DNA from: Acutalibacteraceae bacterium
GTDB taxonomy: Bacteria > Bacillota > Clostridia > Oscillospirales > Acutalibacteraceae
Assembly (NCBI GenBank): GCA_045593325.1
Contig: JAZNWL010000067.1
Location: 1,149-65,148 of the forward strand
Reading direction: 5' to 3'
DNA length: 64,000 nucleotides
The translations under genes were made by a program, and so were the position numbers. Positions 9,545 to 32,705 of the stretch are shown here, piece after piece (position 1 is the stretch's first letter; every line of letters starts with the position of its first letter). The notes under the pieces were generated by a model. The model did no database searches. It saw only the letters and a list, made by a program, of their open reading frames with translations, and had not been told where the DNA came from.

Positions 9545-10621
9545 CTACCCTTCAATGGGGAATTTGGTGATTTTTTTCACTGCGTATTTTAAAATTTGCA
9601 GAGCGTCTTTGGCATTGATGCCCTCTTTGCCATCCACTTCGGCGGCTTTTTGTTGGTCGGCGGTAAGGTCGGTCTTCCCAACAGCAAACTTCAATACTTC
9701 CAAGGCATCTTTGGCGTTTACAGCATCATCCCCGTTTACGTCGCCCAAGGTGATATCTGTGGGGGTGGGAACATCGGTATCAGTGGGGGTATCGGTATTG
9801 GTAACAGGATCATTGGGAATATCGGTATCGGTAACGGGATCTTGGGGTTGTTCGGGATTTTCAGGATCTTCAGGTTCAACCGGGTCGGCAGGAGCAACAA
9901 TGGTAGAGGTACCGTAGCCGTTCAGGTTGGCATTGTTCATAATGGAAGCAAAATCGTAATCTTTTACATAATCCAAAGCCACGGTGCCTTCCACGCCACT
10001 CACTTCACCGAAAGCATATTCGCAAATGTGATAGTAGCCGGTATAAGAGGGGTCGGCAATATCGGTGGCGGTAACCGAAGCATTGGCGGCTTCAGTAAAC
10101 CAGGTGTCATAAGCACCCAAAGCGGTCATAACGGTTTCATTATTATTGGCAAAATCAGCAGTTACAAACACGGTGAGATACAAACGACCGCCTTCGCTCA
10201 ATTTTTCCATGATTGCCAACACCAACTCTGCCACGTTGGCGGAAGCGGTTTCGGGAAGTTGCACACAAACGGGATATTCAAATTGTTTGCCGGCAATAAC
10301 TTTTAACATACCAACGGCTTCCCCTTGGGCTTCTTCCACTGTGGTGGCGTTCATTACAAGGTAAGCGCCCACTTCAACCCCTGCGGCTTTTGCACCGGCA
10401 TAGTTTTGTTCAAAAGCGGAATCAGCACCGCCGTTATAAGCGCACAACATGGCAAAATCGCCGTTTTCGTCTGCGGCAACGGCAGTCCAATCGATGTTTG
10501 CGGTTTCGGGAGCAACGGTGAAACCTTTGGCGGTTACGTTTACTTCGGCAGAGGCAGTCATGGTGAACAAGGCGGTGAAAGCCATAACCATTGCCAAAGT
10601 AATTGCTAATACTTTTTTCAT
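9545..10621 (-). CDS. Secreted GH25-like (lysozyme-fold) protein with a Pro/Thr/Asp linker and a C-terminal dockerin
   Basis: Signal peptide MKKVLAITLAMVMAFTALFTMTASA. FEQNYAGAKAAGVEVGAYLV..TTVEEAQGEA...GKQFEYPVCVQLPE and TVALDYVKDYDF resemble the GH25 muramidase pattern (by eye). The C-terminus reads GDVNGDDAVNAKDALEVLKFAVGK...EVDGKEGINAKDALQILKYAVKK. Confidence 0.75.
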   Translation of the reverse strand: MKKVLAITLAMVMAFTALFTMTASAEVNVTAKGFTVAPETANIDWTAVAADENGDFAMLCAYNGGADSAFEQNYAGAKAAGVEVGAYLVMNATTVEEAQGEAVGMLKVIAGKQFEYPVCVQLPETASANVAELVLAIMEKLSEGGRLYLTVFVTADFANNNETVMTALGAYDTWFTEAANASVTATDIADPSYTGYYHICEYAFGEVSGVEGTVALDYVKDYDFASIMNNANLNGYGTSTIVAPADPVEPEDPENPEQPQDPVTDTDIPNDPVTNTDTPTDTDVPTPTDITLGDVNGDDAVNAKDALEVLKFAVGKTDLTADQQKAAEVDGKEGINAKDALQILKYAVKKITKFPIEG

Positions 10622-10713: not shown

Positions 10714-11466
10714 TTAAGATTGAGGAAAATCGAATTGCGACAAGGAGTACTTTCGATACATATCCCCTACTGTGCATTTTCTCATCACCACGGTAGTAAC
10801 GGCGTTATCGCCTTTTTTATAATGAAACCCGTATACTTTATCAATGGCATGTTCAAAATCAATCACACAAGTACCATAAGGAACAATATCCAAATACACA
10901 CAATCCCCTTTAACAAAGGCGCCTTTATAATGGAGAGATCCTGTTGTCATCCCCGACATGCGATACCAGAGCACCAAACTATAGGTTTCAAAAAACGCTG
11001 CGTTGAACGTGGACTCCGCTTCCTCTTTATTGATATACCCTAAGTCCAAAAAATTTTGATATTCCTCATAAGTTTCAAAATGCCATGCTTGTTCGGTGGT
11101 ACAAATATCATCCTCTACTACTTTCCAGTAGGCAAAGGCAGAGTTAGAAGCAAAGGTAGTCTGTACCGCGCCCTGGTACAGTGGCGATTCTTTTCCCACT
11201 GCATACTTCAAAATGTTCAAGGCATCCACCGCATTCACTACGTCATCATCGTTGGTTTGGGCGGCATGCAAAGCACCAAGAGAGAGACTTTCTTTTTCCA
11301 CCGCATACCGTAGGATACACAAAGCATCTATGGCATTAACGGCACCGTCCAGGTTCACATCACCCAAATAGCCCTTGGTTACGGGGTCGTTTTTTTCTGC
11401 CGCCGAAACCCAAAGGGGCGCACAGAGCAATAACAGGGATAAGAACAAAGCGACCATTCTTTTCAT
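10714..11466 (-). CDS. Secreted protein with an N-terminal dockerin and a C-terminal domain of unknown function
   Basis: Start set to the ATG at 11466 (MKRMVALFLSLLLLCAPLWVSAAE) behind GGGGGA. Directly after the signal peptide: GDVNLDGAVNAIDALCILRYAV...TNDDDVVNAVDALNILKYAVGK. Confidence 0.75.
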   Translation of the reverse strand: MKRMVALFLSLLLLCAPLWVSAAEKNDPVTKGYLGDVNLDGAVNAIDALCILRYAVEKESLSLGALHAAQTNDDDVVNAVDALNILKYAVGKESPLYQGAVQTTFASNSAFAYWKVVEDDICTTEQAWHFETYEEYQNFLDLGYINKEEAESTFNAAFFETYSLVLWYRMSGMTTGSLHYKGAFVKGDCVYLDIVPYGTCVIDFEHAIDKVYGFHYKKGDNAVTTVVMRKCTVGDMYRKYSLSQFDFPQS

Positions 11467-17619: not shown

Positions 17620-17659
17620 ACAGCGGGTAACCTCTAACCGGGTTGCCCGCTGTTTTTTT
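17620..17659 (+). terminator. Terminator between the convergent pgm and AraC genes
   Basis: 13-bp stem acagcgggtaacc / ggttgcccgctgt (one G-U) followed by TTTTTTT. The right arm overlaps the last codons of the AraC gene. Confidence 0.7.
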
Positions 17660-18473
17660 GTTGCCTATACGTTCGGGGGCTGACCCCCACCCGTTTTTTA
17701 AACATCCGGGAAAAGGTAAGGATATCCTTATACCCGCAGGCGGCCGCCACTTCCCCCACGGTGAATGCGGTATACTGTAACAACCGTTTTGCCTGCTCCA
17801 CCCGTTTGCTCATGATAAAATCATTGGTGGTGGTTTGGCAAAATTCCCGAAACAAAGTAAGTAAATACTTCCGACAAATGGGGATTTGCGCCGCCACACA
17901 TTCGGCAGACAAAGATTCCTCCTCCAAGTGGTTCATAATATAGTCCACTGCTTTATTGAAATATACCCTTCGTTTGGTAACTTCGGTGGGTCGGTCAGAA
18001 GAAAGCCGGCGATTTTCTATCATCCCTTTGAAAAAAGCATACAGCCGTATTTTGTGTTCGATTTGCCATGCAAAATCATCAAAGGGAATCTGTTCGGTTT
18101 TTTGATGCAAGCCATGAAGGTGCTCCAAATCCCCAAAGGTACCAATGGGGTGTTCCCGTGAAAACCCCATGGCCCGACAAAGTTCTTCGCATTCGGTGCC
18201 GTCAAAATGCACCCAAACATATTGCCAAGGGTCTTTATCGTCCGACTGATAAACAAAAGGCGTTTGAGGATAAATCAAAAAGGCGTCTCCTTTTTGGGGT
18301 GTGTAGGTTTTTCCGTTTACCGTGAACCGCCCTGAACCACCCAATACCAGATGAAGCAAATAGTCATCGCGACAACCACTCACTTTGTTTCCTTTTTGTG
18401 TGGTTTCATGCCACGACACTTTATGCACCAATCCTTGTTGTTTTTCAACAGTAGGATTTTCTTTTACCAACAT
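17634..18473 (-). CDS. AraC family transcriptional regulator (cupin N-domain plus HTH)
   Basis: C-terminal AraC-type HTH (TVGEVAAACGYKDILTFSRMFKKRVGVSPRTYR). Divergent from the GH31 gene. Confidence 0.85.
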   Translation of the reverse strand: MLVKENPTVEKQQGLVHKVSWHETTQKGNKVSGCRDDYLLHLVLGGSGRFTVNGKTYTPQKGDAFLIYPQTPFVYQSDDKDPWQYVWVHFDGTECEELCRAMGFSREHPIGTFGDLEHLHGLHQKTEQIPFDDFAWQIEHKIRLYAFFKGMIENRRLSSDRPTEVTKRRVYFNKAVDYIMNHLEEESLSAECVAAQIPICRKYLLTLFREFCQTTTNDFIMSKRVEQAKRLLQYTAFTVGEVAAACGYKDILTFSRMFKKRVGVSPRTYRQQKNSGQPG

Positions 18474-18616
18474 TTTTCTTTTCCTTTCTCGGAGTATTTT
18501 AACGTCATTTTACCATGTTTCCATGTTCTTTGTCTATAGAAAAGTTCGTTTTTCCTTTTATACTGAAATTGAAAAAAGGATTTCTTCTACTAATTTCCAA
18601 GGAAGGTTGAGAAACG

Positions 18617-21600: not shown

Positions 21601-22183
21601 AGGAACAGCCATAGGTACATTTGTGGAAGAAAACCCATTCGCCATGGAAAAACAAGTAATTAACGGCTTGGCAGGAGAAACCAAACAATTCCAATTTAAC
21701 GGGATTTTTTCTCAAAAGAATCAACCGGGCGAAGTTACCCTTTGCTATGCCAATATCGGTGACAAAAACGGTTCCCTTACCATTACGGTAAACGGGCAAT
21801 CTAAAGTATTGTACCTGCCTCCCACCCATTCTCCCCATCAATTCAGTAGAGTTTCGGTTGCCATGGATTTCGTAACCGGAGAAAACACCGTTACCTTAAC
21901 CGGGGATATCCAAACGGATTGTGATAACACGGGAATTACCGTAGAAGCCATTATGGTTCCTTCCATTGGATTTACCGATACACCATTCACCTACGGTGAC
22001 GTAAACCAAGATACTAAAATTGATGCCAAAGATGCCTTGCAAGTATTGAAATATGCGGTGGATCAAATTGATTTAACCGAAATCCAAAAGAAAGCCGCTA
22101 ATGTAAACAAGGATGATGCCATCAATGCCAAAGATGCCTTGGAAATTTTGAAAAAGTCGGTAAATAAACCCGCTTGTTTCTAA
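18617..22183 (+). CDS. Secreted GH31 alpha-glycosidase with two CBM-like modules and a C-terminal dockerin
   Basis: Signal peptide MKFGSITRLLIILLALCLALPTPLTALA. The GH31-like core includes GVDGFKIDETD. Two beta-sandwich-like segments follow after aa 850. The C-terminus reads GDVNQDTKIDAKDALQVLKYAV...NVNKDDAINAKDALEILKKSV. Confidence 0.85.
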   Translation: MKFGSITRLLIILLALCLALPTPLTALASESSNNSVEQIEERSGSAVTTASTTGAIGKLMGTYTKSGSKITLQAQNGVMTLNFCKDNMVRVRIAPTEKDFLADNPNLQAVKKFDSDFDAVALTVKDTETALEIKTNGLTVLVNKTTLALTYKDKNGSVITKNTATNPTGFEGEGKWVNFQRDAGGIEEHFYGLGAAPTSGFTSVDWRNRSYDLWMLDTGVHAITPFYYSTAGYGIYLNNSNKGKISFRTTCAIEIEGGELDYYFIYGPSFKDIQSNFGELCGTIAMPPLSSLGLTYRGALNFTDEQLISAIKDFQNADIAVDTVGVEPGWQTATYPCTYVWSNKFPDPAEFIKSIHNLGVKVNLWEHPFVHTQSPIYDSIKPYSLTSETLSVNAGDKNYGFQGLVPDFTLPDTKEIYWQIHNQNLASIGVDGFKIDETDSWVCGSELDITFPGGLSANAYHNIMGTLTVNNMADHYKTEYNKRIFTFSRGNYTGMQRYATTAYSDTYGFSQYLMTVIAQSYSGTYFTPEVRGASTSNDVDYMRRTQMMFMTPFAMNNEWIDGQDVLDRSQAVIDNYKKYNHLYYSLIPYKYSLFWQQHTKGLSVIRALPMEFQEDQETYSVKNQFLLGDSILVAPINSTNQKAARSIYLPAGAHWVDYETGYVYEGGQSISYTANADVLPLFIRKGAIIPTGAVGKNTSDKGDTTITYDLYPTDAKTDFTLYEDDGESYDYEKGKYATTELSLEKSANTITFTAAQRTDGYKIANRNAVAKVHYRTKPYAVALNGTNLEQVASFDAFESATGNVWFYNDGEKDSEKIVYVKYNDTGKTQTVTLNVGEEPEQILPGETPSTAVRFECEDTGNKFRGTTTKSLASASGEKVVANVGNNGRNHFTMNITMEEDGVYPVDIAFANGEQLRTCYLEVNQEEGREFYFYSTGGFDRISTICTNLPLKKGTNTLRFYTLQGEGWAPDFDYIDVYEDSPVQQTTGGIYRLPSQGTAIGTFVEENPFAMEKQVINGLAGETKQFQFNGIFSQKNQPGEVTLCYANIGDKNGSLTITVNGQSKVLYLPPTHSPHQFSRVSVAMDFVTGENTVTLTGDIQTDCDNTGITVEAIMVPSIGFTDTPFTYGDVNQDTKIDAKDALQVLKYAVDQIDLTEIQKKAANVNKDDAINAKDALEILKKSVNKPACF

Positions 22184-22242: not shown

Positions 22243-24453
22243 TTACGAAACGCCCTTTTCCACGCTTTTCACCGCGTGCATTTCCAACTGGGCTTCCACA
22301 AGCCCTTTGTAAATGCCCTTTTCTTTTTGCATCAATTCCTCATGACTGCCCATTTCGGCAATGGTATGCTCATCAATTACAAAAATACGGTCGCACCCTT
22401 TCAAGGTGGAAAGGCGGTGGGCAATGGCAAAGGTGGTTCTGCCTTTTTTCAGCCGTTCCAATGCTTTTTGAATCATAAATTCGCTTTCGGTATCCAAGCT
22501 GGAAGTGGCTTCATCCAAAATTAAAAGGCGGGGATTTACAAGCACCGCACGGGCAATGGCAATCCGTTGCCGTTCCCCACCCGAAAGCCGCTGGCCTTTT
22601 TCCCCTACGGGGGTTTGGTAACCGTAAGGAAACTTGCAAATAAAATCGTGTGCCCCCGCCACCTTGGCGGCGTGAATCACTTCTTCCACGGTGGCGTCCG
22701 GTTTGGCAAACCGAATGTTATCCAACACGGTGCCCGCAAACAAATAATTCTCCTGCAACACCACACCGATTTGGCTGTGCAAACAGGTGGTATCCCAAGT
22801 GCGAATGTCTTTCCCGTCTATGAGTATCTTCCCTTGATTCACATCATAAAGTCGCATAATCAGGTTGATCATGGTGGATTTTCCCGTCCCGGAAGCCCCT
22901 ACCAAACCAATGGATTCTCCCGCTTTTACGGTAAAGGAAATATCTTTCAGCACCGGCTCATACGCCCGATACCCAAAGGTTACGTTCTCAAAGGCAACGT
23001 CCCCTGTAATGGGTTGGGCAACAGGGGTTTCCTGTACCGAAAGGCTCTCGGTTTGCCCCATTACGTCATCAATACGGGCAAGGCTGATTCGCAAATCCAT
23101 CAACATTCGGGGAAGCCATGTAAACCACCCCAACGGGCCGAACATCATATTGGCATAGGAAATATACTGTGCCATTTGCCCCACGGTAAATCCCGTACCG
23201 CTCAGCACCTTCCATCCCCCTGCCAATAACACAAGGGAAGTGCCTAAGTTAAGCAGAAATCCCATAGTGGGATTAAACTTTGCCCAAAACACTTCACTTT
23301 TTTCCTGAATGGCGGCAAGGTTTCCCGCTTCTTGTTCAAATGCCTTGGTTTCTTTTTCTTCCTTGCCGAAGGTTTTTACCACCCGAATGCCCTGCAACAC
23401 ATCCTGCAGGTGACTGTTCAGGCGGTCGTCCCTGCGGCGAACCAAGGAAAACATACGATGCATCGGTCTGCGAAGGGTACGGAACATCACCCAAATGAAG
23501 GGCACAAATACCACCGAAATTAAGGTGAGCTTCCAATCCATATATAACATCATACCAAAAGCACCCAAAAAGGTGATAATATAGGTAAACATATTGGTGA
23601 ACACGTTTTCCATAAACCGCCGCACGGTGCCGGTATCCCCCACAATGCGGTTCATCAAATCTCCGGGTTTTCGGGAATCGTGGTAAGCAAGGGAAAGGGC
23701 TTGTACCTTTTGGAACAAAGCCGACCGCAACGCATTGCTGATTTTCGACCCTAACACCACCCCGTAATACCGTTTTACTAAATCGATTACCACAGCAAGC
23801 GCGGTGAATAAAGCAAGTACCCCCACAAAGGTGAGAATGGCACTCCAGCTCCCCTTTGCAGGGAGCAAATGTTCATCAATAAAAACCTGTTGCCATTTGG
23901 CGGTGTAAAGGGAAATGCCGGCCGCCGAAAGCATAAGAACCCAAATCACAACAAATCGGGGTAAAAAGGGCTTGCAAATCTCAAACAAGCGTTTGAGCCC
24001 TGCGGTTTTTCCTTCACAAACAGGGCAAGAGGACACCCCGTGCATCACCTTGCCGCATTTTTTGCAAACCGTTTCGGCTTCCCCGCTTTCCACAAGGCGA
24101 AAATCCCCTTCCATAAAACGGGTGATGCCTCGCACTACGTAGGAAAATTTAGCAAGCAAAGCGGTGGTAAAACGGCAAAGCACCAACGGCTCTCCGCCCA
24201 CGGTAAGGGTAACGTACCCAACCCCAATTCCCTTTTGGCATTCTGCCTTTTCCAGGGAAGAAAGAGGGTAAAACGCCGTTACGGTATCCCCCTCAAAAAT
24301 CCCCAAAGCGGTGTGGGATACCGCCAACCATCTGTCCTTTGCAAAAGTTCCTTGTTCATCCAGGTCAAAGGGAATACAATACACCATTTCGTTGGCATCG
24401 TTTTTCTTCCAATTTTCCATTTGCTTTGCCGATAGGTCAACACATAAATTCAC
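22243..24453 (-). CDS. ABC exporter half-transporter (TMD-NBD) with an N-terminal cytoplasmic domain and a zinc ribbon
   Basis: Walker A GASGTGKST, signature LSGGERQRIAIARA, Walker B LLILDEATSSLD. N-terminal extension of about 165 aa containing CKKCGKVMHGVSSCPVC. GTG start at 24453, 7 nt after GGGGAGGTG. Confidence 0.88.
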   Translation of the reverse strand: MNLCVDLSAKQMENWKKNDANEMVYCIPFDLDEQGTFAKDRWLAVSHTALGIFEGDTVTAFYPLSSLEKAECQKGIGVGYVTLTVGGEPLVLCRFTTALLAKFSYVVRGITRFMEGDFRLVESGEAETVCKKCGKVMHGVSSCPVCEGKTAGLKRLFEICKPFLPRFVVIWVLMLSAAGISLYTAKWQQVFIDEHLLPAKGSWSAILTFVGVLALFTALAVVIDLVKRYYGVVLGSKISNALRSALFQKVQALSLAYHDSRKPGDLMNRIVGDTGTVRRFMENVFTNMFTYIITFLGAFGMMLYMDWKLTLISVVFVPFIWVMFRTLRRPMHRMFSLVRRRDDRLNSHLQDVLQGIRVVKTFGKEEKETKAFEQEAGNLAAIQEKSEVFWAKFNPTMGFLLNLGTSLVLLAGGWKVLSGTGFTVGQMAQYISYANMMFGPLGWFTWLPRMLMDLRISLARIDDVMGQTESLSVQETPVAQPITGDVAFENVTFGYRAYEPVLKDISFTVKAGESIGLVGASGTGKSTMINLIMRLYDVNQGKILIDGKDIRTWDTTCLHSQIGVVLQENYLFAGTVLDNIRFAKPDATVEEVIHAAKVAGAHDFICKFPYGYQTPVGEKGQRLSGGERQRIAIARAVLVNPRLLILDEATSSLDTESEFMIQKALERLKKGRTTFAIAHRLSTLKGCDRIFVIDEHTIAEMGSHEELMQKEKGIYKGLVEAQLEMHAVKSVEKGVS

Positions 24454-24483
24454 GGGTTTTCACCTCCCCGAACCAAAAAACAG

Positions 24484-25023
24484 CTACATATACAAATCCA
24501 CCATCCGCAATTCTTTTGCGGAAAGCTTTGTTACGTCGGGCAATTCAAAACGGTTGCCGTCCACATCCGAAACAATTAAGCGGGTGCTTGAGAGTTTGGA
24601 AACCCCGTTTTGGTCCACCGTAAAACGGCATACCCCTTTATCGGTATTCACATACCAATAGGAATAGCCGTATTGTTCTTTAATTTCAAAAATCCTCTGA
24701 ATTTTGGGCATAAAATATCGCAAATTCAGTTGATATTCAATGGCTTTTACCGTTTCCTCATCAAATACATTCAAGCGGGCAATGATGCCGATTTCCCGAT
24801 TGTTTTCATCCTCCTGCCGCACCGAAAGATATTCGTTTTCCCCGCTAAACGGGAAGGTGCGGAAAAAGAGAACCCGCGGGTATTCCTTGCCACGGTAGTG
24901 CAAGGTAACAAATCCACCTGAAGTTTTGGTAAACACAGCATTTTGGGGTGTAAGAAAGCGGGTTTCCAAAAGGTCGTCTGCCAACTGTTCTTCCTGTTTT
25001 AAAACCGAATTGTTTTTCTTCAT
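24484..25023 (-). CDS. DUF1854-like protein (ABC-transporter-associated)
   Basis: 179 aa, wedged between the two ABC genes. FRTFPFS...IGII...LNLRYFMPKIQRIFEIKEQYGYSYWYVNTDKG matches my recollection of the DUF1854 pattern. Confidence 0.7.
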   Translation of the reverse strand: MKKNNSVLKQEEQLADDLLETRFLTPQNAVFTKTSGGFVTLHYRGKEYPRVLFFRTFPFSGENEYLSVRQEDENNREIGIIARLNVFDEETVKAIEYQLNLRYFMPKIQRIFEIKEQYGYSYWYVNTDKGVCRFTVDQNGVSKLSSTRLIVSDVDGNRFELPDVTKLSAKELRMVDLYM

Positions 25024-25034
25024 TTTCCGTCCCC

Positions 25035-27377
25035 CTATTCAATCACAATATTTTCTTCCTGTTGCCCTTTTAAGGAAAGGGCTTTGGTTTGCAGTTCCAC
25101 CAATTTATAATAAATCCCTTGATTGTTTATCAATTCCCGGTGGGTGCCGTATTCGGCAACCTTGCCTTCCTCCAGCACCAACAGTTTGTGTGCCCCCCGC
25201 AAGGTGGAAAGGCGGTGGGCAATGGAAATGGTGGTACGCCCTTGCACCAATTTATCCAAAGCATTTTGAATGTTCCGTTCGGTGGCGGTATCCACCGAAG
25301 CGGTGGCTTCGTCTAAAATCAAAATGGGACTGTTTGCCAGAATGGCACGGGCAACCGAAAGCCGTTGCCGCTCCCCACCCGAAAGCTGCCGCCCCGAAGA
25401 ACCGATTACCGTTTCGTAACCGTCGGGCATTTGGCAAATAAAATCGTGTGCCCCTGCGTGAATGGCGGCTTTGATGATATCCTCACGGGTAGCATTGGGG
25501 CAGGCATAGGCAATGTTTTCTGCCACCGTGCCCATAAACACGTAACTGTCTTGAGAAACGGTGGAAACACATTGATGTAAGGTTTCCATGGAAAGGTCTT
25601 TTAGGGGAATCCCGTCAATGGTAATTTCCCCGCTGTCCACGTCATACAGCCGAGAAATTAAACTCACAAGGGTGGATTTCCCTACCCCCGATTTTCCTAC
25701 AATGCCCAGCATTTCTCCTGCGGGAATATCCACCGAAATGTTGTGCAAAACAGGTTTCCCCGCTTGGTAGGAAAAGGTAACGTTATTTATGGAAACATCC
25801 CCCCGAATGGTATCCAAGGAAACGGGATTTTTCTTTTCTTCCACTTGGGGTTTGGTATCCATAATTTCAAAAATTCTGCCTGCGGCATTCATGGAAGAGG
25901 TTCCCCAACGAAACAGGTCGGTCATAGAACCCAGCAGTTGGGAAAGCATTCCCACGTAGCTTAAAAACACCGCCAACATCCCGTAGGACATCCCCGTGTG
26001 CCCGCCTTTGATAATCAAATAGGCACCCAAGCCCCATACCCCCAAATTCAGCAGGTTGCCACCCACCGCAGAAAGGGCAAAATAACGGTTTTCATAAGCC
26101 ACCACCGAAACCTCGGTTTCCTGCATCCGATTGTTTTCTTTTTCAAATTCAAAAACGGCAGCTTGCTCCTGCCCAAAGGCTTTGATCACCCGACTGCCCG
26201 TGAGGGTATCGTTCAGCACCCCGCTCATATTGCGGTTTGCTCGGTGCCGTTTGCCGTGCAAATGCCATAACATGGGTTGCAGCTTGGTGGAAATGAAGGT
26301 AAGCACCGGCACCACCGCCACCGCCAACACCGCCAACTGCCAGTTTAAGGAGAACATCATAACCACCAATGCAGTGGCGTGAATGGTGTTGCCGAATACG
26401 TAGGGAAGGCCGTCAATAAAAAATCCCGTAACCTCTCCCGCATCCCCCAACACACGGGTCATCAGTCCTCCTGTTTTGCGGTCGGTAAAAAAGGAAAGAG
26501 AAAGCCGCCGCAAGGCGGAAAACACATCCTCTTTGATTCTTCGTACCACACGGGGCACAATTTTCCCCACCAAGGCAAACTGAAATATGCTGATAATCCA
26601 GGTGACAATGCGAACCGCCAAAAAGGAGCCCATTACCAATAACAAAAGGGTAAGAAAATCCCCTCCCGCCAAGGACCAAACCCCCGTAAAGGTGGATTTT
26701 TTCCCCAACACGTCATCAAAATACACCGCCCCTGAAAGATAAGGCATAATCACGCTAAAAACCGCACTGAACAGAATCAAAAGGGAAACCCCCGCCATTT
26801 TCCATTTGTGGGGTTTAAAATAGGAAAGGGTTCGCACAAATAAACTCCGATGGTCGGTGCATTTGGGGCAAATTTTCCGTTCTTTATCCAAGTAAGGTGC
26901 ACCGCATATTTCGCAAAAATCACTGTGTTCTTTGTCTTTGGTGTCCTCTTCTTTCAGTTCTTCCCCTTTTTTCACCTTGTCCGCAAGGGATGCCATTCGA
27001 TTAGCATCGGTGTTCAGCCCACTTGTAAAGCAAAATAAAGGTTGTTCCCCCGCCGCGGTTTTGATGCAAAGCATCCCTCCGCCAAGGAAAGACTGTATCC
27101 AAATTTTTTCAATATCCTGCAAAGCAAATTCGGTAACCGAAGAAACCGTTCCATCCTCTTGAATGGGCTTGTTTTTCCCAATATACCCTCCGTACACTTT
27201 TGCGGGAATACGGGTTTGCCCCTGTGCCAAAACCAGCTTCTCTTTGGTGAGCAACAAATAAAAGTCGGCAAATTCCCCATTGGAATTCAAATCCCCCTTG
27301 CAGGCATACAAAACGTCTTCATCGGGAAAGGATTTCTTTTTCAATTTTTCATAGTCCTTAGAACCGAAAAAACCCAT
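25035..27377 (-). CDS. ABC exporter half-transporter (TMD-NBD) with an N-terminal cytoplasmic domain and a zinc ribbon
   Basis: Walker A GKSGVGKST, LSGGERQRLSVARA, ILILDEATASVD. N-terminal extension of about 190 aa with CEICGAPYLDKERKICPKC. Start set to the ATG at 27377 (MGFFGSK), 8 nt after AAAGGAG. Confidence 0.88.
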   Translation of the reverse strand: MGFFGSKDYEKLKKKSFPDEDVLYACKGDLNSNGEFADFYLLLTKEKLVLAQGQTRIPAKVYGGYIGKNKPIQEDGTVSSVTEFALQDIEKIWIQSFLGGGMLCIKTAAGEQPLFCFTSGLNTDANRMASLADKVKKGEELKEEDTKDKEHSDFCEICGAPYLDKERKICPKCTDHRSLFVRTLSYFKPHKWKMAGVSLLILFSAVFSVIMPYLSGAVYFDDVLGKKSTFTGVWSLAGGDFLTLLLLVMGSFLAVRIVTWIISIFQFALVGKIVPRVVRRIKEDVFSALRRLSLSFFTDRKTGGLMTRVLGDAGEVTGFFIDGLPYVFGNTIHATALVVMMFSLNWQLAVLAVAVVPVLTFISTKLQPMLWHLHGKRHRANRNMSGVLNDTLTGSRVIKAFGQEQAAVFEFEKENNRMQETEVSVVAYENRYFALSAVGGNLLNLGVWGLGAYLIIKGGHTGMSYGMLAVFLSYVGMLSQLLGSMTDLFRWGTSSMNAAGRIFEIMDTKPQVEEKKNPVSLDTIRGDVSINNVTFSYQAGKPVLHNISVDIPAGEMLGIVGKSGVGKSTLVSLISRLYDVDSGEITIDGIPLKDLSMETLHQCVSTVSQDSYVFMGTVAENIAYACPNATREDIIKAAIHAGAHDFICQMPDGYETVIGSSGRQLSGGERQRLSVARAILANSPILILDEATASVDTATERNIQNALDKLVQGRTTISIAHRLSTLRGAHKLLVLEEGKVAEYGTHRELINNQGIYYKLVELQTKALSLKGQQEENIVIE

Positions 27378-27413
27378 ATTTGTCACTCCTTTTTATAAAT
27401 CTTATTTTTCTTC

Positions 27414-27442
27414 GTTATAACATACCGAAAAAATGTTGTCAA
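27414..27442 (-). promoter_or_regulatory. Promoter of the ABC/DUF1854 operon
   Basis: On the minus strand: TTGACA (27437-27442), a 17-nt spacer, then TATAAC (27414-27419), 37 nt upstream of the ATG. Confidence 0.55.
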
Positions 27443-27452
27443 CCTAAAATCC

Positions 27453-27488
27453 TTGTCTGATATAAAAAAATTATTATCTAAAATTCAA
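27453..27488 (-). promoter_or_regulatory. Candidate LytTR-type operator, copy 1 (two half-sites 21 nt apart)
   Basis: The minus strand reads TTGAATTTTAGATAA-N15-AGACAA and ends 10 nt upstream of the -35. The 15-mer is identical to 29257-29271. Confidence 0.5.
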
Positions 27489-27598
27489 CTGCATTTCCAA
27501 AATAAAAAACAAATATTTACTGTAATCGTTTCTTTCCAACGCGGCAAAAACGGTGGTGTTTTGTATTGATAAAAGGCTTTTTCGGCTATTCTGCTGAT

Positions 27599-28198
27599 TT
27601 ATTCAAAATTGATAGGCATTTTTACAAGGGTATGGCTACAATGGGAGCATTCATCTTGCTGAATATTATTATAAGAACCGCACACGGCACATTGAACTCG
27701 AAAGTCCGATGAAGCGGGTAACACAATGGTGTGTGCCGTACCTGAAAGGTGAAACACCTTGTCCCCTATCCGATACTTTTCAATATTAGGCGACAATTTT
27801 TCTTGTTTACTATACACTTCTGCCCGCTCGTAATATACTTGGCGGGAAATACGTTTTCCATTGATAAGCCGTATATCCAAAATAATGGTGTTCCTTCGAG
27901 GCTGTGTCCAAGGTCTTTTAAATCTCCAATCCATATCCACGCCTGTTTTGATGGTAATATCGGTCACTTCACCCAAGAAACTATTGTCGGTTATTTGGGG
28001 AAACACCTTTGCAAAAACAACCCCCAATAAAAACAAAAGAAGAGCAGCAATAGATGTTTTTTCGGCGGGGGTGTTCAATTCCAAAGAACAGTAAATCCCG
28101 GTGGATACCCCTACAACCAACGCCAACAGAAGCATTCGTTTAATTCTTTGTTTCACCGAAATGTTTCTTAAATCAGACGGCAACAGTTTCTTGTTCAT
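27599..28198 (-). CDS. Two-TM membrane protein with a cytoplasmic beta-rich domain and a C-terminal zinc ribbon
   Basis: Start set to the ATG at 28198 (MNKKLLPSD) behind GAGGTGG. Two hydrophobic helices near the N-terminus. C-terminal CAVCGSYNNIQQDECSHC. No family recognised. Confidence 0.65.
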   Translation of the reverse strand: MNKKLLPSDLRNISVKQRIKRMLLLALVVGVSTGIYCSLELNTPAEKTSIAALLLFLLGVVFAKVFPQITDNSFLGEVTDITIKTGVDMDWRFKRPWTQPRRNTIILDIRLINGKRISRQVYYERAEVYSKQEKLSPNIEKYRIGDKVFHLSGTAHTIVLPASSDFRVQCAVCGSYNNIQQDECSHCSHTLVKMPINFE

Positions 28199-28261
28199 AA
28201 TCTTCCACCTCTTTTTCAATTATCATCCAATTCCCATGCAATTGTCAAGAATTGAGGCCAA

Positions 28262-28290
28262 AAACGGGCAGTTGTGATAACCGCCCGTTT
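28262..28290 (-). terminator. Terminator after 28328..29101
   Basis: Stem aaacgggc / gcccgttt. On the minus strand it reads gcccgtttttgg. Confidence 0.5.
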
Positions 28291-28327
28291 CCCTTCTGCT
28301 TGTGATTTAAAAAAACTTGCCTATTGG

Positions 28328-29101
28328 TTACTCAGGGAAAATCTTATCTAACGGCCATTCCACAACCCGTTTCCCTACTGCCGATTGCAATGCCCACAAA
28401 GCATCCACCGCATTGATTTCTCCATCAGCATTTACATCATCCTTACGATTGATGGAGCCTTCTTCTTTCCCAACGGCAGCTCTTAAAATATGCAGTGCCG
28501 ATACAGCGGTGTATTTGTAAATGTAACTTGTGCCGGTATAAATTTCGGTTACATCATTGCCAAGGTCGGTAGCGGTAACGTCGGTTGGGGTCTCAACATC
28601 CGGCACAGGGATTTCATCTTCAAACCACAGAATAAAAGCAACCCGTTCCTGTTCTGCGAGGCGAAGAATTTCGGCTTTGGTGGTTCTAAAGGTTACCGAA
28701 ACACCTACAATTACCATATCTTCGGTTTTTTCCAAATCAACCGCTTCAAAAAACTCCTTGTAGAAAGTTTCTTCTGCTTCTTTTTGGAATTGTTTTTCTA
28801 GCGCAATCAATTGGTTTACTTGTTCGGTATATTTAGGGCTGCCGGTTAAAGCCAACCGATAATTCTCTTCCCCCATAACAGCAATTGCTTTTGCTTCATA
28901 GTCTTCCTGAGAAAGTTGAGGAAGGTCTCCGATTGCGTACACTGCAATTTCGGCGGTATCGGTATCGTTCATAGTTTCCAAATGCGTCCTAAAATCTTCG
29001 CCTAATTTATCGGTATGTTCTTCTGCAAAAACAACGCCGAAACTCATAGAAATTGCCAATACCAAGCCTAACAATAGCATTTGTTTGAAAATCTTCTTCA
29101 T
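28328..29101 (-). CDS. Secreted protein with a degenerate (half) dockerin at the C-terminus
   Basis: Start at the ATG at 29101 (MKKIFKQMLLLGLVLAISMSFGVVFAEE). The C-terminus reads TAVSALHILRAAVGKEE...DDVNADGEINAVDALWALQSAVGK. The second repeat is canonical. The first keeps the helix but lacks the Ca loop. Confidence 0.75.
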   Translation of the reverse strand: MKKIFKQMLLLGLVLAISMSFGVVFAEEHTDKLGEDFRTHLETMNDTDTAEIAVYAIGDLPQLSQEDYEAKAIAVMGEENYRLALTGSPKYTEQVNQLIALEKQFQKEAEETFYKEFFEAVDLEKTEDMVIVGVSVTFRTTKAEILRLAEQERVAFILWFEDEIPVPDVETPTDVTATDLGNDVTEIYTGTSYIYKYTAVSALHILRAAVGKEEGSINRKDDVNADGEINAVDALWALQSAVGKRVVEWPLDKIFPE

Positions 29102-29197
29102 AAATATCACGCTCCTTAAATCAATTGAAAAGGTTCATTTTCTACTACTTAAACACAAAAGGAGGGAAAAATACTCACGATAATTAGAATTTTTTTC

Positions 29198-29206
29198 ATT
29201 ATATCA
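29198..29206 (-). promoter_or_regulatory. Extended -10 (TGaTATAAT) in front of 28328..29101, with no recognisable -35
   Basis: The minus strand reads TGATATAAT at 29206-29198, about 97 nt upstream of the ATG. It lies 32 nt downstream of the proximal operator half-site. Confidence 0.45.
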
Positions 29207-29235
29207 TAAAAAACCGTGAAATCATTCGCCATTAT

Positions 29236-29271
29236 TTATCTCTGATGAAATTTTATTTATCTAAAATTCAA
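29236..29271 (-). promoter_or_regulatory. Candidate LytTR-type operator, copy 2
   Basis: The minus strand reads TTGAATTTTAGATAA-N15-AGATAA, that is AGATAAATAA twice with a 21-nt period. It lies about 200 nt from the divergent LytTR regulator gene. Confidence 0.5.
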
Positions 29272-29407
29272 TGATACTTCTAAAAATACTCCACATCGGA
29301 ATTCTCCTCCTTGCAGTTTAGATGATGCCCACTTTCATTTAATATGCAAATTTGTGTGCTGTCAATAGATATTGCCTATTCGTTGCCTCAAACGTCCTAT
29401 TCGATAT

Positions 29408-29436
29408 TTGACAATAAATTTTTAACCTTGTATACT
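29408..29436 (+). promoter_or_regulatory. Promoter of the LytTR two-component operon
   Basis: TTGACA (29408-29413), a 17-nt spacer, then TATACT (29431-29436), 32 nt upstream of the TTG start. Confidence 0.55.
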
Positions 29437-29468
29437 TTATATAATGAAACCAACAAGGAGGATTTGCT

Positions 29469-30179
29469 TTGAACATTGCCATTTGCGACGATAACATAAC
29501 CCACCGAGATGCGGTGATTAACAACATACAACAAAACAACCCAACCGATGCGACCCTAACCATTTCCCAATTTGAAAATGCAGAAGCTCTTTTGCAAGCA
29601 TATAGGAAAGGGAACCGATATGATTTGATTTTTTTGGATGTGGAAATGGGTAAGGTGAACGGCATTGATGCTGCTATGGAAATTCGCAAATGCCAACCCA
29701 ATGTATTGCTTGTTTTTATTTCGAGCCACCCTCAATATGCCATTCCCGCTTACGATTGCCAGCCCTTATATTTCATTACCAAACCCATTAACTCCGCTCG
29801 ATTTTCTCATATTTTTGCCAAGGTGATGGAACGGTATAAACAATTGCACCAATATTACGTCATTCAAAACAAAGGGCAAATCATTAAACTGTTAATTGAA
29901 GAGATTACCTATGTGGAAGTGTTCCGAAAACACGTTATTTTTCACACTGCCAAGGAAACCTATGAAACCACCGGTACCACCTTGCAAAAAACCGTGGAGT
30001 CTCTTTTACCTTATGGGTTTTGTCAAGTGCATCAAAGTATACTGGTAAATATGGAACACATCAAAGCCATTGAACAATATGATATTATTTTAGACGACGA
30101 TACCACCGTACCCATCAGTGTGCGAAAAAAATCCCAAGTATTAAAAACCTTTGCAGAATATATTGAAAGGACGATGTAA
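29469..30179 (+). CDS. LytTR-family response regulator (REC plus LytTR DNA-binding domain)
   Basis: TTG start 6 nt after AGGAGGA. The receiver domain reads MNIAICDD...DLIFLDVEM. The C-terminal LytTR-like segment includes KLLIEEITYVEV, HTAKETYE and FCQVHQSILVNMEHI. Confidence 0.88.
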   Translation: MNIAICDDNITHRDAVINNIQQNNPTDATLTISQFENAEALLQAYRKGNRYDLIFLDVEMGKVNGIDAAMEIRKCQPNVLLVFISSHPQYAIPAYDCQPLYFITKPINSARFSHIFAKVMERYKQLHQYYVIQNKGQIIKLLIEEITYVEVFRKHVIFHTAKETYETTGTTLQKTVESLLPYGFCQVHQSILVNMEHIKAIEQYDIILDDDTTVPISVRKKSQVLKTFAEYIERTM

Positions 30180-30181
30180 TC

Positions 30182-31462
30182 ATGAGTGATTTGTTATACA
30201 ACGCAATCAATGGCGGATTGGAAGTTGTTTTAATTTGTTTGTTTTTTCAAACCTTTGTTCACCCCATCGCGTGGCAAGGCAGAAAATGGACTTTGGGATG
30301 TATTGGTTGTTTATTTGTTGGTCTTCTTGCCATTCCCAAGCCTACCCCTGTAAACTTTGTGCTTATACTCCTTTTAATATTTTTTATTTCCATGCTATAC
30401 AAAATGAAATGGTATCAACATATTTTCTTTAGCGTGATTATTGTTACCCTGTATTCCTTGGCAGAGGTAATTGTAGTTGTTATTAGCAGCATGATATTAA
30501 ACGTGGAACTGGTTCTTCTTAAAACCGGCAACTATTTATTATTTGGTATGTTGGCGTCCAAATTAATTATTTTAATCATGATTCTTATTTTAAAATTCGG
30601 ACGTCATAAATTACCCTTAAAACATTTGGGGAGTGTTTGGGGATATGTGATTTTTGTTTTAATTACTTCCATTGTTTCCATTTTTCTTGTGCTTGACTAT
30701 ATGCACCTAATTCTTGGTAACACCACAAAACAGTTTGTAACCCTTTTGGCGGTTTCCTTGATTATTGTAATGAACATTATGTTGTTTTATATCATTGATA
30801 AAATCAACGAACACTTTGAAACCAAACACAATTTGGACACCGCCAAAGAATTGATAGAAAGCCAAAAAGCAACCTACAAAACCTTATATGAAAATCAACA
30901 GGAAATCCGAAAAGTTCGTCATGATTTAAAAAATTCCATGGTGGGAATTTTATACGAATTGGAAAACAAAAAAACAGATGATGCCATAAGTCGGATGAAA
31001 GGAATTCTTGAATTATTCGAAGAACAACGCTTCTCCTTTTCAGGGAACAACATTATTGATACGTTGATGAATTTCAAGAAAAAAGAAGCAGCTAACTACA
31101 ACATTCAATGGGAAGAATCCATTCATTTATCGGAATCATTGAACATTGACCCCATAGATTTTTCGGTTTTATTGGGCAATGCTTTAGACAATGCCATAGA
31201 AGCCACTGCAAAGCAAACCACGCACCCAAAAACCATTTTTGTATCCATGGCTTATAAGCAAGAGAATTTGTTAATGGTCATAAAAAATCCGGTGGACGCC
31301 CTCATTGACACAACCAATTTACAATCCACCAAACAAAATAAAACCCATCACGGTTTTGGCATATTGCAAATGAAACAGTTAGCCCAAAAGTATAACGGCG
31401 AAGTGTTTTTGGAATGCACTAACGAACAGTTTAAAACCTCTATTCTTATTGGGAAAATTTAA
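30182..31462 (+). CDS. AgrC/ComD-like (HPK10-type) membrane sensor histidine kinase
   Basis: 6-7 N-terminal TM segments, H-box VRHDLKNSM, N-box LLGNALDNAIEAT and G-box HGFGILQMKQLAQKYNGE. The start lies 2 nt after the RR stop. Confidence 0.88.
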   Translation: MSDLLYNAINGGLEVVLICLFFQTFVHPIAWQGRKWTLGCIGCLFVGLLAIPKPTPVNFVLILLLIFFISMLYKMKWYQHIFFSVIIVTLYSLAEVIVVVISSMILNVELVLLKTGNYLLFGMLASKLIILIMILILKFGRHKLPLKHLGSVWGYVIFVLITSIVSIFLVLDYMHLILGNTTKQFVTLLAVSLIIVMNIMLFYIIDKINEHFETKHNLDTAKELIESQKATYKTLYENQQEIRKVRHDLKNSMVGILYELENKKTDDAISRMKGILELFEEQRFSFSGNNIIDTLMNFKKKEAANYNIQWEESIHLSESLNIDPIDFSVLLGNALDNAIEATAKQTTHPKTIFVSMAYKQENLLMVIKNPVDALIDTTNLQSTKQNKTHHGFGILQMKQLAQKYNGEVFLECTNEQFKTSILIGKI

Positions 31463-31487
31463 AGACGAATTTCCAATAAAACACCAC

Positions 31488-31516
31488 TTGCACACCCTTT
31501 GTCCTTTTCATACAAT
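31488..31516 (+). promoter_or_regulatory. Promoter of the MecA-like gene
   Basis: TTGCAC (31488-31493), a 17-nt spacer, then TACAAT (31511-31516). This places the TSS downstream of the ORF-track start at 31499. Confidence 0.45.
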
Positions 31517-31546
31517 GATAGTACACAGAAAGGACGGGGATGCCCT

Positions 31547-32077
31547 TTGCATATTCAAAAAGAAGCGGGGAACAGCTTTATGGTGGAGTTAACCGCAACC
31601 GAATTACAGCAATATCACTTAACATACAGTCAACTGCATTTGCAAAACAAAAAAACCAAATGTTTATTGCAGTCCCTACTTTGCAACGCCGGTAAAATGG
31701 TGGGATTTTGTAAGGGAGAGGGGAAATTATTGATAGAAGTTTATCCCGCGCCTGCACAGGGGTGCACCATTTATTTCACCAACCTACCCTTTGGGGACAA
31801 ACGGTATCGGAAAATCTCCCCCTACGTTTTCCGCTTTGAAACCTGCGATGATTTATTGCAAGGGGCGGCGTGTTTCGGGGAACATCATCCCCAAAGCGAA
31901 GCCTACCGTTACGGAGAACACTACCTGTTGATACTACATAGTGCGCCCGTACACGGTCTGAAAGAATTCGCGAAACCATTGCCTTCTTCCAAACCTTTTC
32001 TTGCTCACATACGGGAACACGGGCAGTTGCTTTGTAAACCCAACGCAGTGGAGAGGTTGCAGGGAAAAACCATATAA
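31547..32077 (+). CDS. MecA-family adaptor protein (short form)
   Basis: With the TTG start at 31547 (6 nt after AGGACGGGGA) the N-terminus (M)HIQKEAGNSFMVELTATELQQYHLTY parallels MecA MEIERINEHTVKFYMSYGDIEDRGF. C-terminal YRYGEHYLLIL and IREHGQLLCKPNAVERL also look MecA-like. ATG at 31580 is an alternative start. Confidence 0.6.
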   Translation: MHIQKEAGNSFMVELTATELQQYHLTYSQLHLQNKKTKCLLQSLLCNAGKMVGFCKGEGKLLIEVYPAPAQGCTIYFTNLPFGDKRYRKISPYVFRFETCDDLLQGAACFGEHHPQSEAYRYGEHYLLILHSAPVHGLKEFAKPLPSSKPFLAHIREHGQLLCKPNAVERLQGKTI

Positions 32078-32086
32078 ACGCAAAAC

Positions 32087-32116
32087 GAGCACAGGATTTC
32101 CTGTGCTCATTTTTTT
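32087..32116 (+). terminator. Terminator between the convergent mecA-like and rdgB genes
   Basis: Stem gagcacag / ctgtgctc with a 6-nt loop, followed by aTTTTTTT. Confidence 0.7.
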
Positions 32117-32705
32117 ATCCCAATTTTTGTTGCAATTCTTGTTGCAGTTTTATAAGTGCTCTGCCACGGTGACTAACCGCATCTTTTTCTTCTGCCGTAA
32201 GCTGGGCAAAACTTTTTTCTCCCACCATGAAAACAGGGTCATAACCAAAACCGTTTTCTCCCAAAGGAGAAAAGCCAATGGTGCCTTCACATTCTCCCCG
32301 AACAGAGAGGGTATCCCCATTTGGCCAGACACAGCACACAGCCGAAACAAAACGAGCTGTGCGATGCTCCTTTGGCACGTCCTGTAAATTTTCCAGGAGT
32401 TTTTCGATTCGCTGACCGTCGGTGGCATTTTCCCCTGCATAACGGGCGGAGTACACCCCGGGTTGCCCGTTTAAGGCATCCACACACAGACCCGAATCAT
32501 CCGCCACGGCGGGAAGACCTGTTTTGTCACAAGCCGCCTTGGCTTTGATATAGGCATTTTCTTCAAAGGTTTCCCCGGTTTCTTCTACGTCATCCAAAGA
32601 AATCCCCAGGGTTTTGGTGGACACGGCATCGATCCCCAAAGGGGCTAAGATCCGTTCCAATTCCAATAATTTGTGGGCGTTGCCCGTGGCAATGATAAAT
32701 TGCAT
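32115..32705 (-). CDS. rdgB: Non-canonical purine NTP pyrophosphatase (RdgB/HAM1 family)
   Basis: MQFIIATGNAHKLLELERIL, DDSGLCVDALNGQPGVYSARY and GFGYDPVF. Confidence 0.92.
   Translation of the reverse strand: MQFIIATGNAHKLLELERILAPLGIDAVSTKTLGISLDDVEETGETFEENAYIKAKAACDKTGLPAVADDSGLCVDALNGQPGVYSARYAGENATDGQRIEKLLENLQDVPKEHRTARFVSAVCCVWPNGDTLSVRGECEGTIGFSPLGENGFGYDPVFMVGEKSFAQLTAEEKDAVSHRGRALIKLQQELQQKLG

Follow-up and report, generated by a model that had tools for sequence, protein, structure and literature searches.

The 64,000-nucleotide (nt) stretch analyzed here (the window; positions 1,149 to 65,148 of contig JAZNWL010000067.1 of an Acutalibacteraceae bacterium) carries the 15-mer TTATCTAAAATTCAA at two sites, one upstream of an operon for an ABC exporter and the other upstream of the gene for a secreted protein with a dockerin-like segment (Doc260). 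Based on the comparison with related loci, which are cited below by L numbers, we regard the two 15-mers as the likely invariant distal repeats of two paralogous promoter heads of the activator type, and the response regulator (RR) encoded next to them is probably not their binder. We put the probability of this reading at about 55%.

Layout of the repeated module and its variants in related loci

The two copies of the module in the window comprise the following elements.

27474 to 27488, minus strand: distal repeat of copy 1, the invariant 15-mer TTGAATTTTAGATAA (exact match; 15/15 in all four module variants and in L096)
27453 to 27467, minus strand: proximal repeat of copy 1, TTTTATATCAGACAA, 21 nt after the distal repeat, with the core AGACAA at 27453 to 27458
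27414 to 27442, minus strand: promoter of the ABC-exporter operon as read from the sequence, with the -35 element TTGACA (27437 to 27442), a 17-nt spacer and the -10 element TATAAC (27414 to 27419)
29257 to 29271, minus strand: distal repeat of copy 2, the invariant 15-mer TTGAATTTTAGATAA (exact match; identical in L081, L100 and L104)
29236 to 29250, minus strand: proximal repeat of copy 2, TTTCATCAGAGATAA, with the core AGATAA at 29236 to 29241 (kept in L104)
29198 to 29206, minus strand: extended -10 element TGATATAAT of copy 2, with no -35 element (conserved in L081, L088, L100 and L104)

An earlier reading, made from the sequence alone (hereafter the sequence-only reading), had pointed out the identical 15-mer at 27474–27488 and 29257–29271 of the plus strand and had noticed no further copy in the other intergenic regions that it covered. 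Both matches are exact, and they are the sole ones in the window even at up to two mismatches. Read on the minus strand, both copies have the form TTGAATTTTAGATAA-N15-AGAYAA, and the pattern AGATAA-N15-AGAYAA was found on this strand only at 27453–27479 and 29236–29262, even with one mismatch allowed. The spacing described in that reading was also reproduced: AGATAA is followed 21 nt later by AGAYAA in both copies, and the -10 hexamer starts 33 nt (copy 1, TATAAC) or 32 nt (copy 2, TATAAT at 29198–29203) after the proximal hexamer. Likewise, copy 1 bears the consensus -35 reported previously, in the order of AGACAA, 10 nt, TTGACA, a 17-nt spacer and TATAAC, and in copy 2 AGATAA is followed after 32 nt by the extended -10 element without a -35. 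In general, TTGAATTTTAGATAA is followed after 6 nt by a weaker 15-bp version of itself that terminates in AGAYAA; the -35 position comes 10 nt later, and TATAAY and then GAARAAA follow after another 17 nt. Both copies face genes on the minus strand, copy 1 the ABC-exporter operon and copy 2 the Doc260 gene.

An exact 15-mer shared by two sites is by itself weak evidence, being not rare in 64 kb: there are 63 shared 15-mers in the window, first-order Markov simulations give approximately 10, and blastn-short assigned the pair an E value of 0.03. These figures would favor a chance resemblance within AT-rich intergenic DNA. On the other hand, the local alignment between the two upstream regions was better than those of all 500 shuffles (p < 0.002), and the second in-register hexamer of the 15-mer in both copies had a p value of 0.026. 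The pattern AGATAA-N15-AGAYAA yielded 0.45 matches on average in shuffled sequences and two or more matches in 3 of 100 shuffles. The full combination is not chance, and the decisive evidence comes from the relatives. As the full layout is repeated in the independent variants in L103 and L104, chance resemblance is effectively refuted, and we consider it highly improbable.

The loci L103 and L104 were reached via homologues of TM206, a membrane protein encoded between the two copies (see below for the details). In L103, a membrane-protein gene is followed by TTGAATTTTAGATAA-N15-AGATAA-N10-TTGATG-N17-TATAAC, which lies ahead of the gene for a dockerin protein of 696 aa. The L104 locus (assembly GCA_054265715.1, of which 20 kb was covered) is orthologous to the window at approximately 84% DNA identity, and its copy 2 retains 15/15 positions of the 15-mer as well as AGATAA and TGATATAAT, with scrambled sequence in the 26 nt between them. 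We compared four distinct variants, namely copies 1 and 2 of the window, the module ahead of the 696-aa dockerin gene in L103 and copy 2 of L104, in all six pairs. The identity of each block was as follows.

15-mer: 15/15 in each of the six pairs
Proximal core: 5 to 6 of 6
-10 element: 5 to 6 of 6
15-nt spacer between the repeats: 40 to 73%
32 to 33 nt from the proximal core to the -10: 25 to 47%

Because the variants in L103 and L104 keep the 15-mer, AGAYAA and the -10 amid scrambled sequence, we take it to be a genuine promoter module of operator-like character whose geometry is of the LytTR type. The -35 is not conserved, as would be expected of an activator-dependent promoter. A comparable pattern was seen between closer loci, in that the window and L096 differ at no position of the 15-mer and AGACAA but at 4 of the 15 spacer positions; in copy 2 of L088, the 15-mer has a single substitution, from AGATAA to AGACAA. 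Across the window and the related loci scanned, AGAYAA-N15-AGAYAA was found inside these modules only; the matches to AGATAA-N15-AGAYAA in L001 and L002 lie within a coding region and were set aside as chance matches. A candidate third repeat upstream, TTTTRGAART, is 19 nt upstream rather than 21, and we gave it no weight because its instance at copy 1 belongs to a duplicated mecA fragment. Descent of the 15-mers from the 3′ end of the kinase gene or the 3′ ends of dockerin genes (..TTAGATAAGGATTT..) was also rejected, with p values of 0.14 and 0.38 for the local alignments.

The operators of LytTR regulators, such as the AgrA boxes in P2 and P3 of Staphylococcus aureus agr, are paired imperfect direct repeats with a 12–13-bp spacer just upstream of the -35, where transcription depends on the activator, and the half-site consensus is [TA][AC][CA]GTTN[AG][TG] (PMC5600425). 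In LytTR promoters, 9-bp repeats are separated by a 12-bp spacer, and the proximal repeat lies 4–11 bp, often 10 bp, from the -35 (PMC6193735). Expressed in these terms, the geometry of the module is 9-12-9-10-(-35)-17-(-10). The 9-bp cores, TTTAGATAA and NNNAGAYAA, are identical at 6/9 positions in both window copies, and each of the four variants has a period of exactly 21 bp. The proximal repeat is 10 bp apart from TTGACA in copy 1 and from TTGATG in L103; copy 2 and its counterpart in L104 have no -35, yet the distance of 32–33 nt to the -10 is maintained. Nevertheless, neither AGAYAA repeat contains the GTT core of the family consensus on either strand. Thus, the LytTR-type operator architecture proposed in the sequence-only reading stands as to the 21-bp period and the 10 bp to the -35, seen across four variants, and does not extend to the core sequence: the module seems LytTR-like in geometry but departs from both the family consensus and the repeats of the RR regulon described below.

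The neighbouring regulator and its own operator

The elements of the regulator locus are as follows.

29469 to 31462, plus strand: AgrA-like LytTR RR (29469 to 30179; Pfam Response_reg and LytTR; conserved aspartate in FLDVEM) and AgrC-like histidine kinase (HK; 30182 to 31462; HATPase_c_5)
29375 to 29405, plus strand: conserved LytTR operator, with CCTATTCGTT (box 1, 29375 to 29384), 11 nt and CCTATTCGAT (box 2, 29396 to 29405); invariant in 9 orthologous loci and the sole such pair in the window
29408 to 29436, plus strand: promoter of the RR-HK operon, TTGACA-N17-TATACT, of which the -35 starts 2 bp after box 2
29337 to 29365, minus strand: divergent promoter P_div, with the -35 TTGACA (29360 to 29365) 9 nt from box 1, 17 nt and the -10 TTAAAT (29337 to 29342)

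Exact-protein look-ups found neither the RR nor the HK of the window on record. The closest relatives of the RR in the genome collection were 47–51% identical; its nearest genome relatives are metagenome-assembled genomes of Acutalibacteraceae and Clostridia from animal guts. A protein search retrieved closer orthologues with 99, 93, 79, 64, 63, 61 and 61% identity, of which the contigs were compared. The alignment of nine RR upstream regions contained one invariant block composed of a minus-strand TTGACA, 9 nt, CCYATTCGTYG, 11 nt, CYYATTCG.., 2 nt, TTGACA, 17 nt and TAtAaT. The RR orthologues thus conserve CCTATTCGTT-N11-CCTATTCGWT, with a 21-bp period, abutting the -35 of their own promoter. 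Even in the distant relatives L001–L004, (W)TTCGTK repeats with a 21-bp period were found upstream of the RR genes, and the boxes are conserved down to 39–51% RR identity. Upstream of 80 more distant LytTR genes, many different repeat motifs were found, none of which was AGAYAA-like.

The boxes also occur outside the RR promoter. In L085, which encodes a 63%-identical RR orthologue, they lie in reverse orientation with the same 9-nt linker to TTGACA, ahead of agrB and the AgrD-like peptide MAKYGVALSAFALLIGTASVNSSCIVFYHQPKVPAAMNRFKK (6359–7088; AgrB, PF04647; peptide motif SSCIVFY). In L072, they are likewise in reverse orientation ahead of another AgrD-like open reading frame (ORF; 4931–5080, SACRWGFY). 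As the boxes are conserved in the orthologues, precede agrB and agrD, and fit the LytTR consensus with their CGTT core, we regard the RR as AgrA-like and the CCTATTCGTT pair, direct repeats at a 21-bp period abutting a -35, as its operator. By these properties, the pair is an ordinary autoregulatory operator of the AgrA type, and what sets it apart is the apparent use of one pair for two back-to-back promoters.

In all nine orthologous loci, one box pair is conserved between the two back-to-back -35s (29337–29436 in the window; 2 bp and 9 bp away). The layout of P_div, namely the reverse complement of box 1, 9 nt, the -35 TTGACA (TTGAAA in L085), 17 nt and a -10-like hexamer, was found in all of the orthologues. 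Judging from this geometry, the CCTATTCGTT pair probably controls P_div as well, and transcription from P_div would pass across copy 2 and enter the dockerin gene.

Several features of the P_div leader were considered separately. An imperfect inverted copy of the 15-mer, TTGCAGTTTAGATGA (29311–29325), is merely part of the conserved leader. An 11-codon ORF (MWSIFRSIIEF; 29298 to 29263, minus strand) follows a strong AAGGAGG ribosome-binding site, and its stop codon falls inside copy 2; the 15-mer itself contains stop codons in each of the three frames. In L088 the ORF is disrupted by a frameshift, in L104 4 of its 11 residues are changed, and copy 1 has no equivalent; it is probably a stub rather than a gene. 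The Rfam scan of 27200–29600 gave no match, and RNA structure in the leader was dismissed, as the fold of 29095–29345 (minus strand) had z = -1.1. The long leader from P_div to the divergent dockerin gene in the 61% orthologue L082 carries a (TA)n microsatellite of approximately 17 units (9700–9735).

The RR boxes and the AGAYAA sites have little in common. Whatever the register, CCTATTCGTT agrees with the AGAYAA sites at only approximately 4–5 of 10 positions, and the invariant C..ATTCG positions are absent from the latter. We built a weight matrix from the conserved RR boxes and scanned the window with it. The matrix recovered one pair, at 29373–29408 with a score of 41, the next best score being 16; near copies 1 and 2, the best score was at most 1.4, and nothing was found near the TM206 promoter either. 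Plus-strand half-sites near the copies (CTTCGTT at 27410 and ATTCGCC at 29224) were discarded due to wrong spacing and negative matrix scores. The conserved operator at 29375–29405 is located 105 bp to the right of copy 2 and had been overlooked in the sequence-only reading. Because the conserved operator of the RR is a different repeat, the CCTATTCGTT pair, we consider the RR probably not to be the binder of the module.

Of the components of an agr locus, the AgrA-like RR and the AgrC-like kinase, a multi-pass protein with HATPase_c_5, are present in the window. No tblastn match for agrB or agrD was found in the window with the AgrB of L085 or the translations of the two L072 ORFs as queries, and mecA directly follows the kinase gene. 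The two-component system is therefore an orphan agrCA pair (29469–32077 including mecA).

Distribution, rearrangement junctions and candidate binders

Copy 2 was found in L081, L088, L100 and L104. Neither copy 2 nor the module was detected in L082, L084, L085, L089 or L091 with up to three mismatches allowed, and the module is absent at the orthologous loci with 61–79% RR identity; in L084 and L091, P_div runs almost straight into the divergent gene. Copy 1 is absent upstream of ABC_A, the exporter gene behind it, in L081, L082 and L104, where the TTGACA -35 is kept in all three. The TTGACA-N17 promoter upstream of ABC_A is kept with the -10 TATAAC in L081, L103 and L096 and with TATGAT in L082, while the DNA upstream of this promoter in L081 and L082 differs from that of the window. 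A scan of the metagenome collection with the strict pattern gave 11 matches, 9 of which were unrelated; the remaining two were homologous and at orthologous positions (copy 2 in L100 and copy 1 in L096). Thus, the 15-mer, with two copies in the window and homologous metagenome matches at two orthologous positions only, is not part of a dispersed repeat found at many unrelated loci; membership of such a repeat was what the sequence-only reading had named as counting against its proposal.

The sequence-only reading had assigned the sites to the RR encoded at 29469..30179. In this case, the adjacent AgrA-like RR would use the AGAYAA repeats as operators for activating both the dockerin gene and the ABC operon, besides its role at its own promoter. 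The LytTR-type geometry favors this assignment, as do the location of every known module in one locus next to the only LytTR regulator of the window and the lack of any copy elsewhere in the strict-pattern metagenome scan. There is also a precedent for divergence between the repeats of a regulator's own operon and those of its targets in HdrR/BrsR of the Streptococcus mutans type, albeit still sharing an ACC..TTA core (PMC6193735). The assignment is nevertheless difficult to reconcile with the boxes conserved by the orthologues and the negative matrix result given above. Moreover, the boxes are kept to 39–51% RR identity, whereas the module is gone below approximately 84% DNA identity, and copy 1 persists in L096, a variant in which this position has no RR-HK block. 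With the dockerin gene already fed by the presumably box-dependent P_div, a further promoter under RR control downstream of P_div would also be redundant. Consequently, the assignment is not sustained, and we regard the RR as an unlikely binder, at odds of a few to one against.

The edges of the module coincide with rearrangement junctions. L096 is colinear with the window but lacks 27511–31468, which comprises the genes for the membrane protein, the dockerin protein, the RR and the HK, and its positions 1–1237 align to 27178–27510 and 31469–32400 of the window. There, a TTTTATT(TT)GGAAAT common to both marks the fusion of the mecA promoter region with the copy-1 module, and the junction is 4–5 nt upstream of the 15-mer. 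The window and L103 are 98% identical until 3 nt past the 15-mer and unrelated further on. A third junction is associated with the following feature.

27485 to 27565, plus strand: diverged duplicate, 81 nt long, of an internal mecA segment (31630 to 31712), with 77% identity and a local alignment score of 75 against a shuffle maximum of 29

This duplicate is direct, lies between the TM206 gene and copy 1, and overlaps the copy-1 15-mer by 4 nt at its left end; it has the look of a scar left by rearrangement. Between the RR gene and the ABC operon, the set of genes differs in every relative examined.

These junctions and the variable gene content are what would be anticipated if the main role of the 15-mer lay in recombination or at cassette junctions, or if it were a relic of such events, with the likeness of AGAYAA and the -10 reflecting common promoter descent. 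However, no recombinase gene is present in the locus or the window, and a 15-bp stretch is a short substrate for homologous recombination. Nor does neutral descent explain 15/15 identity beside spacers at chance level, or the fixed 21-nt and 33-nt registers, and a selected element would be expected to have junctions at its edges in any case. We therefore see a primary role in recombination as distinctly unlikely.

Members of the AraC/XylS family, as in XylS/AraC systems, bind two 15–17-bp direct repeats with a 21-bp period upstream of an activator-dependent promoter, and their proximal repeat overlaps the -35. The module is similar to these sites in repeat length and period, and its proximal copies, read as 15-bp repeats after a 6-bp gap, match the distal one at 10–11 of 15 positions (10/15 in copy 1). 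Two AraC-family genes are present in the window (17634–18473 and 46520–47410). An activator outside the LytTR family, e.g., of the AraC/XylS type, may thus be envisaged as the binder, but 10 bp separate the proximal repeat from the -35, so that the two do not overlap, the motif is next to neither AraC gene, and the intergenic region between the first of them and the GH31 gene (18474–18616) contains no similar motif. Readings of the 15-mer as a CodY, ArgR, Fur or alternative-sigma site, assessed by eye against the consensus sequences, left at least five mismatches or wrong spacing. Altogether, a binder outside the LytTR family has, in our view, only around one chance in ten.

Our preferred reading, paralogous activator-type promoter heads with a binder other than the RR, has its own difficulties. 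All module instances come from one narrow lineage (approximately 84% DNA identity or more), all known sites adjoin the only LytTR regulator in 64 kb, as expected were that RR the binder, and the three junctions within a few nt of the 15-mer may point to a role in recombination instead. In addition, the whole copy-2 intergenic region is approximately 90% conserved between the window and L104, so that conservation among orthologues alone says little and the argument rests mainly on the comparison of paralogues.

Under the preferred reading, a protein that binds direct repeats would occupy both repeats of the module on one face of the helix, consistent with the 21-bp period, and would recruit RNA polymerase to promoters in which the -35 is dispensable. 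Such a protein would be an activator, presumably of the LytTR type. The promoter head would drive interchangeable cassettes in a variable locus, i.e., the ABC exporter and several secreted dockerin proteins, and crossovers at the 15-mer would shuffle these cassettes. As the 15-mer is the only identical stretch between the cassettes, crossovers that preserve function would fall at or beside it.

Genes of the locus and comparison with known systems

The genes under or between the two copies are as follows.

22243 to 27377, minus strand: operon behind copy 1, with ABC_A (25035 to 27377), a DUF1854 protein (24484 to 25023) and ABC_B (22243 to 24453); Pfam ABC_membrane, ABC_tran and DUF1854; heterodimeric ABC exporter
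28328 to 29101, minus strand: Doc260 behind copy 2, 257 aa, secreted, with a dockerin-like segment at the C-terminus (weak Pfam Dockerin_1; dockerin repeat family D1)
27599 to 28198, minus strand: TM206, 199 aa, with two transmembrane helices and a C-terminal CxxC...CxxC; its own promoter TTGACA-N18-GATAAT is at 28219 to 28248

The ABC half-transporters and the DUF1854 protein are homologous to the ABC and DUF1854 families annotated by NCBI as "cyanophycin metabolism-associated", although their scores fall far short of the cut-offs. ABC_A and ABC_B are paralogous genes and share long DNA repeats 2798 nt apart. A terminator follows the Doc260 gene at approximately 28262–28290. The N-terminal two-thirds of Doc260 (28594–29101) could not be aligned at the DNA level with L081, L100 or L104, while the flanks are 92–98% identical, which marks this part as an apparent hypervariable secreted domain. 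For TM206, neither Pfam nor NCBIfam gave a match, and homologues were found only in L082, L103 and L104; its AlphaFold model had a pLDDT of 48 and was unusable for judging TM206 as a DNA-binding candidate.

At least six genes in the window carry pairs of dockerin-type repeats (45-nt units, 102 nt apart; 4805–4951, 9575–9721, 11194–11340, 21994–22168, 28373–28417 and 47495–47641), including those for a GH31 enzyme and a BspA-type leucine-rich repeat protein. These genes are set in a core chromosomal region with the genes for ribosomal proteins, SecY, RpoA, SMC and FtsY. The set of dockerin genes suggests a cellulosome-like organism.

Compared with agr of S. aureus, the CCTATTCGTT pair is fully alike, being autoregulatory, with a CGTT core and located ahead of agrB and agrD in relatives. 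The AGAYAA module agrees in geometry; however, it lacks the GTT core, has a distal element of 15 bp and does not resemble the boxes of the RR itself. S. aureus agr possesses two separate box pairs, whereas the locus in the window has one pair for two back-to-back promoters. The module resembles the HdrR/BrsR sites in the 9-bp repeats, the 12-bp spacer and the 10 bp to the -35. Unlike that system, the two repeat types of the window share almost nothing, and the RR is a classical two-component RR with no membrane inhibitor partner.

In blp of Streptococcus pneumoniae and pln of Lactobacillus plantarum, a LytTR system is located beside an ABC exporter and strain-variable operons for secreted products under the same repeat operator, and the cassettes are shuffled by recombination. 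The locus in the window is similar in its LytTR two-component system, its ABC exporter and its variable secreted-protein cassettes under a common repeat. On the other hand, the cargo of blp and pln is bacteriocins and that of the window is dockerin-bearing proteins, no C39 peptidase domain was detected by Pfam in the exporter, the window is without a pheromone gene, and the operator of the cassettes differs from that of the regulator. One may speculate that the head composed of the 15-mer and AGAYAA is the crossover point of a cassette exchange of dockerin proteins and the exporter under common quorum-sensing-linked control, a cellulosome-type counterpart of blp/pln, or alternatively that one AgrA-type regulator recognizes two unrelated half-site classes; we hold this proposal to be doubtful.

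The searched literature contained no account of this motif or of agr-type control of dockerin genes. The present analysis corrects the assignment of the regulator to its site, in that the operator of the RR is the single CCTATTCGTT pair for two back-to-back promoters and the AGAYAA module stands apart from it as another control element. Should the module prove to be an activator site, a small regulon restricted to this locus would be defined in an uncultured lineage of gut or rumen Clostridia, consisting of variable dockerin proteins and an ABC exporter beside an orphan agrCA pair. Such a regulon would connect cell–cell signalling, or an input of another kind, with the surface display of cellulosome-type proteins, and the shared operator would serve as a seam for the exchange of gene cassettes.

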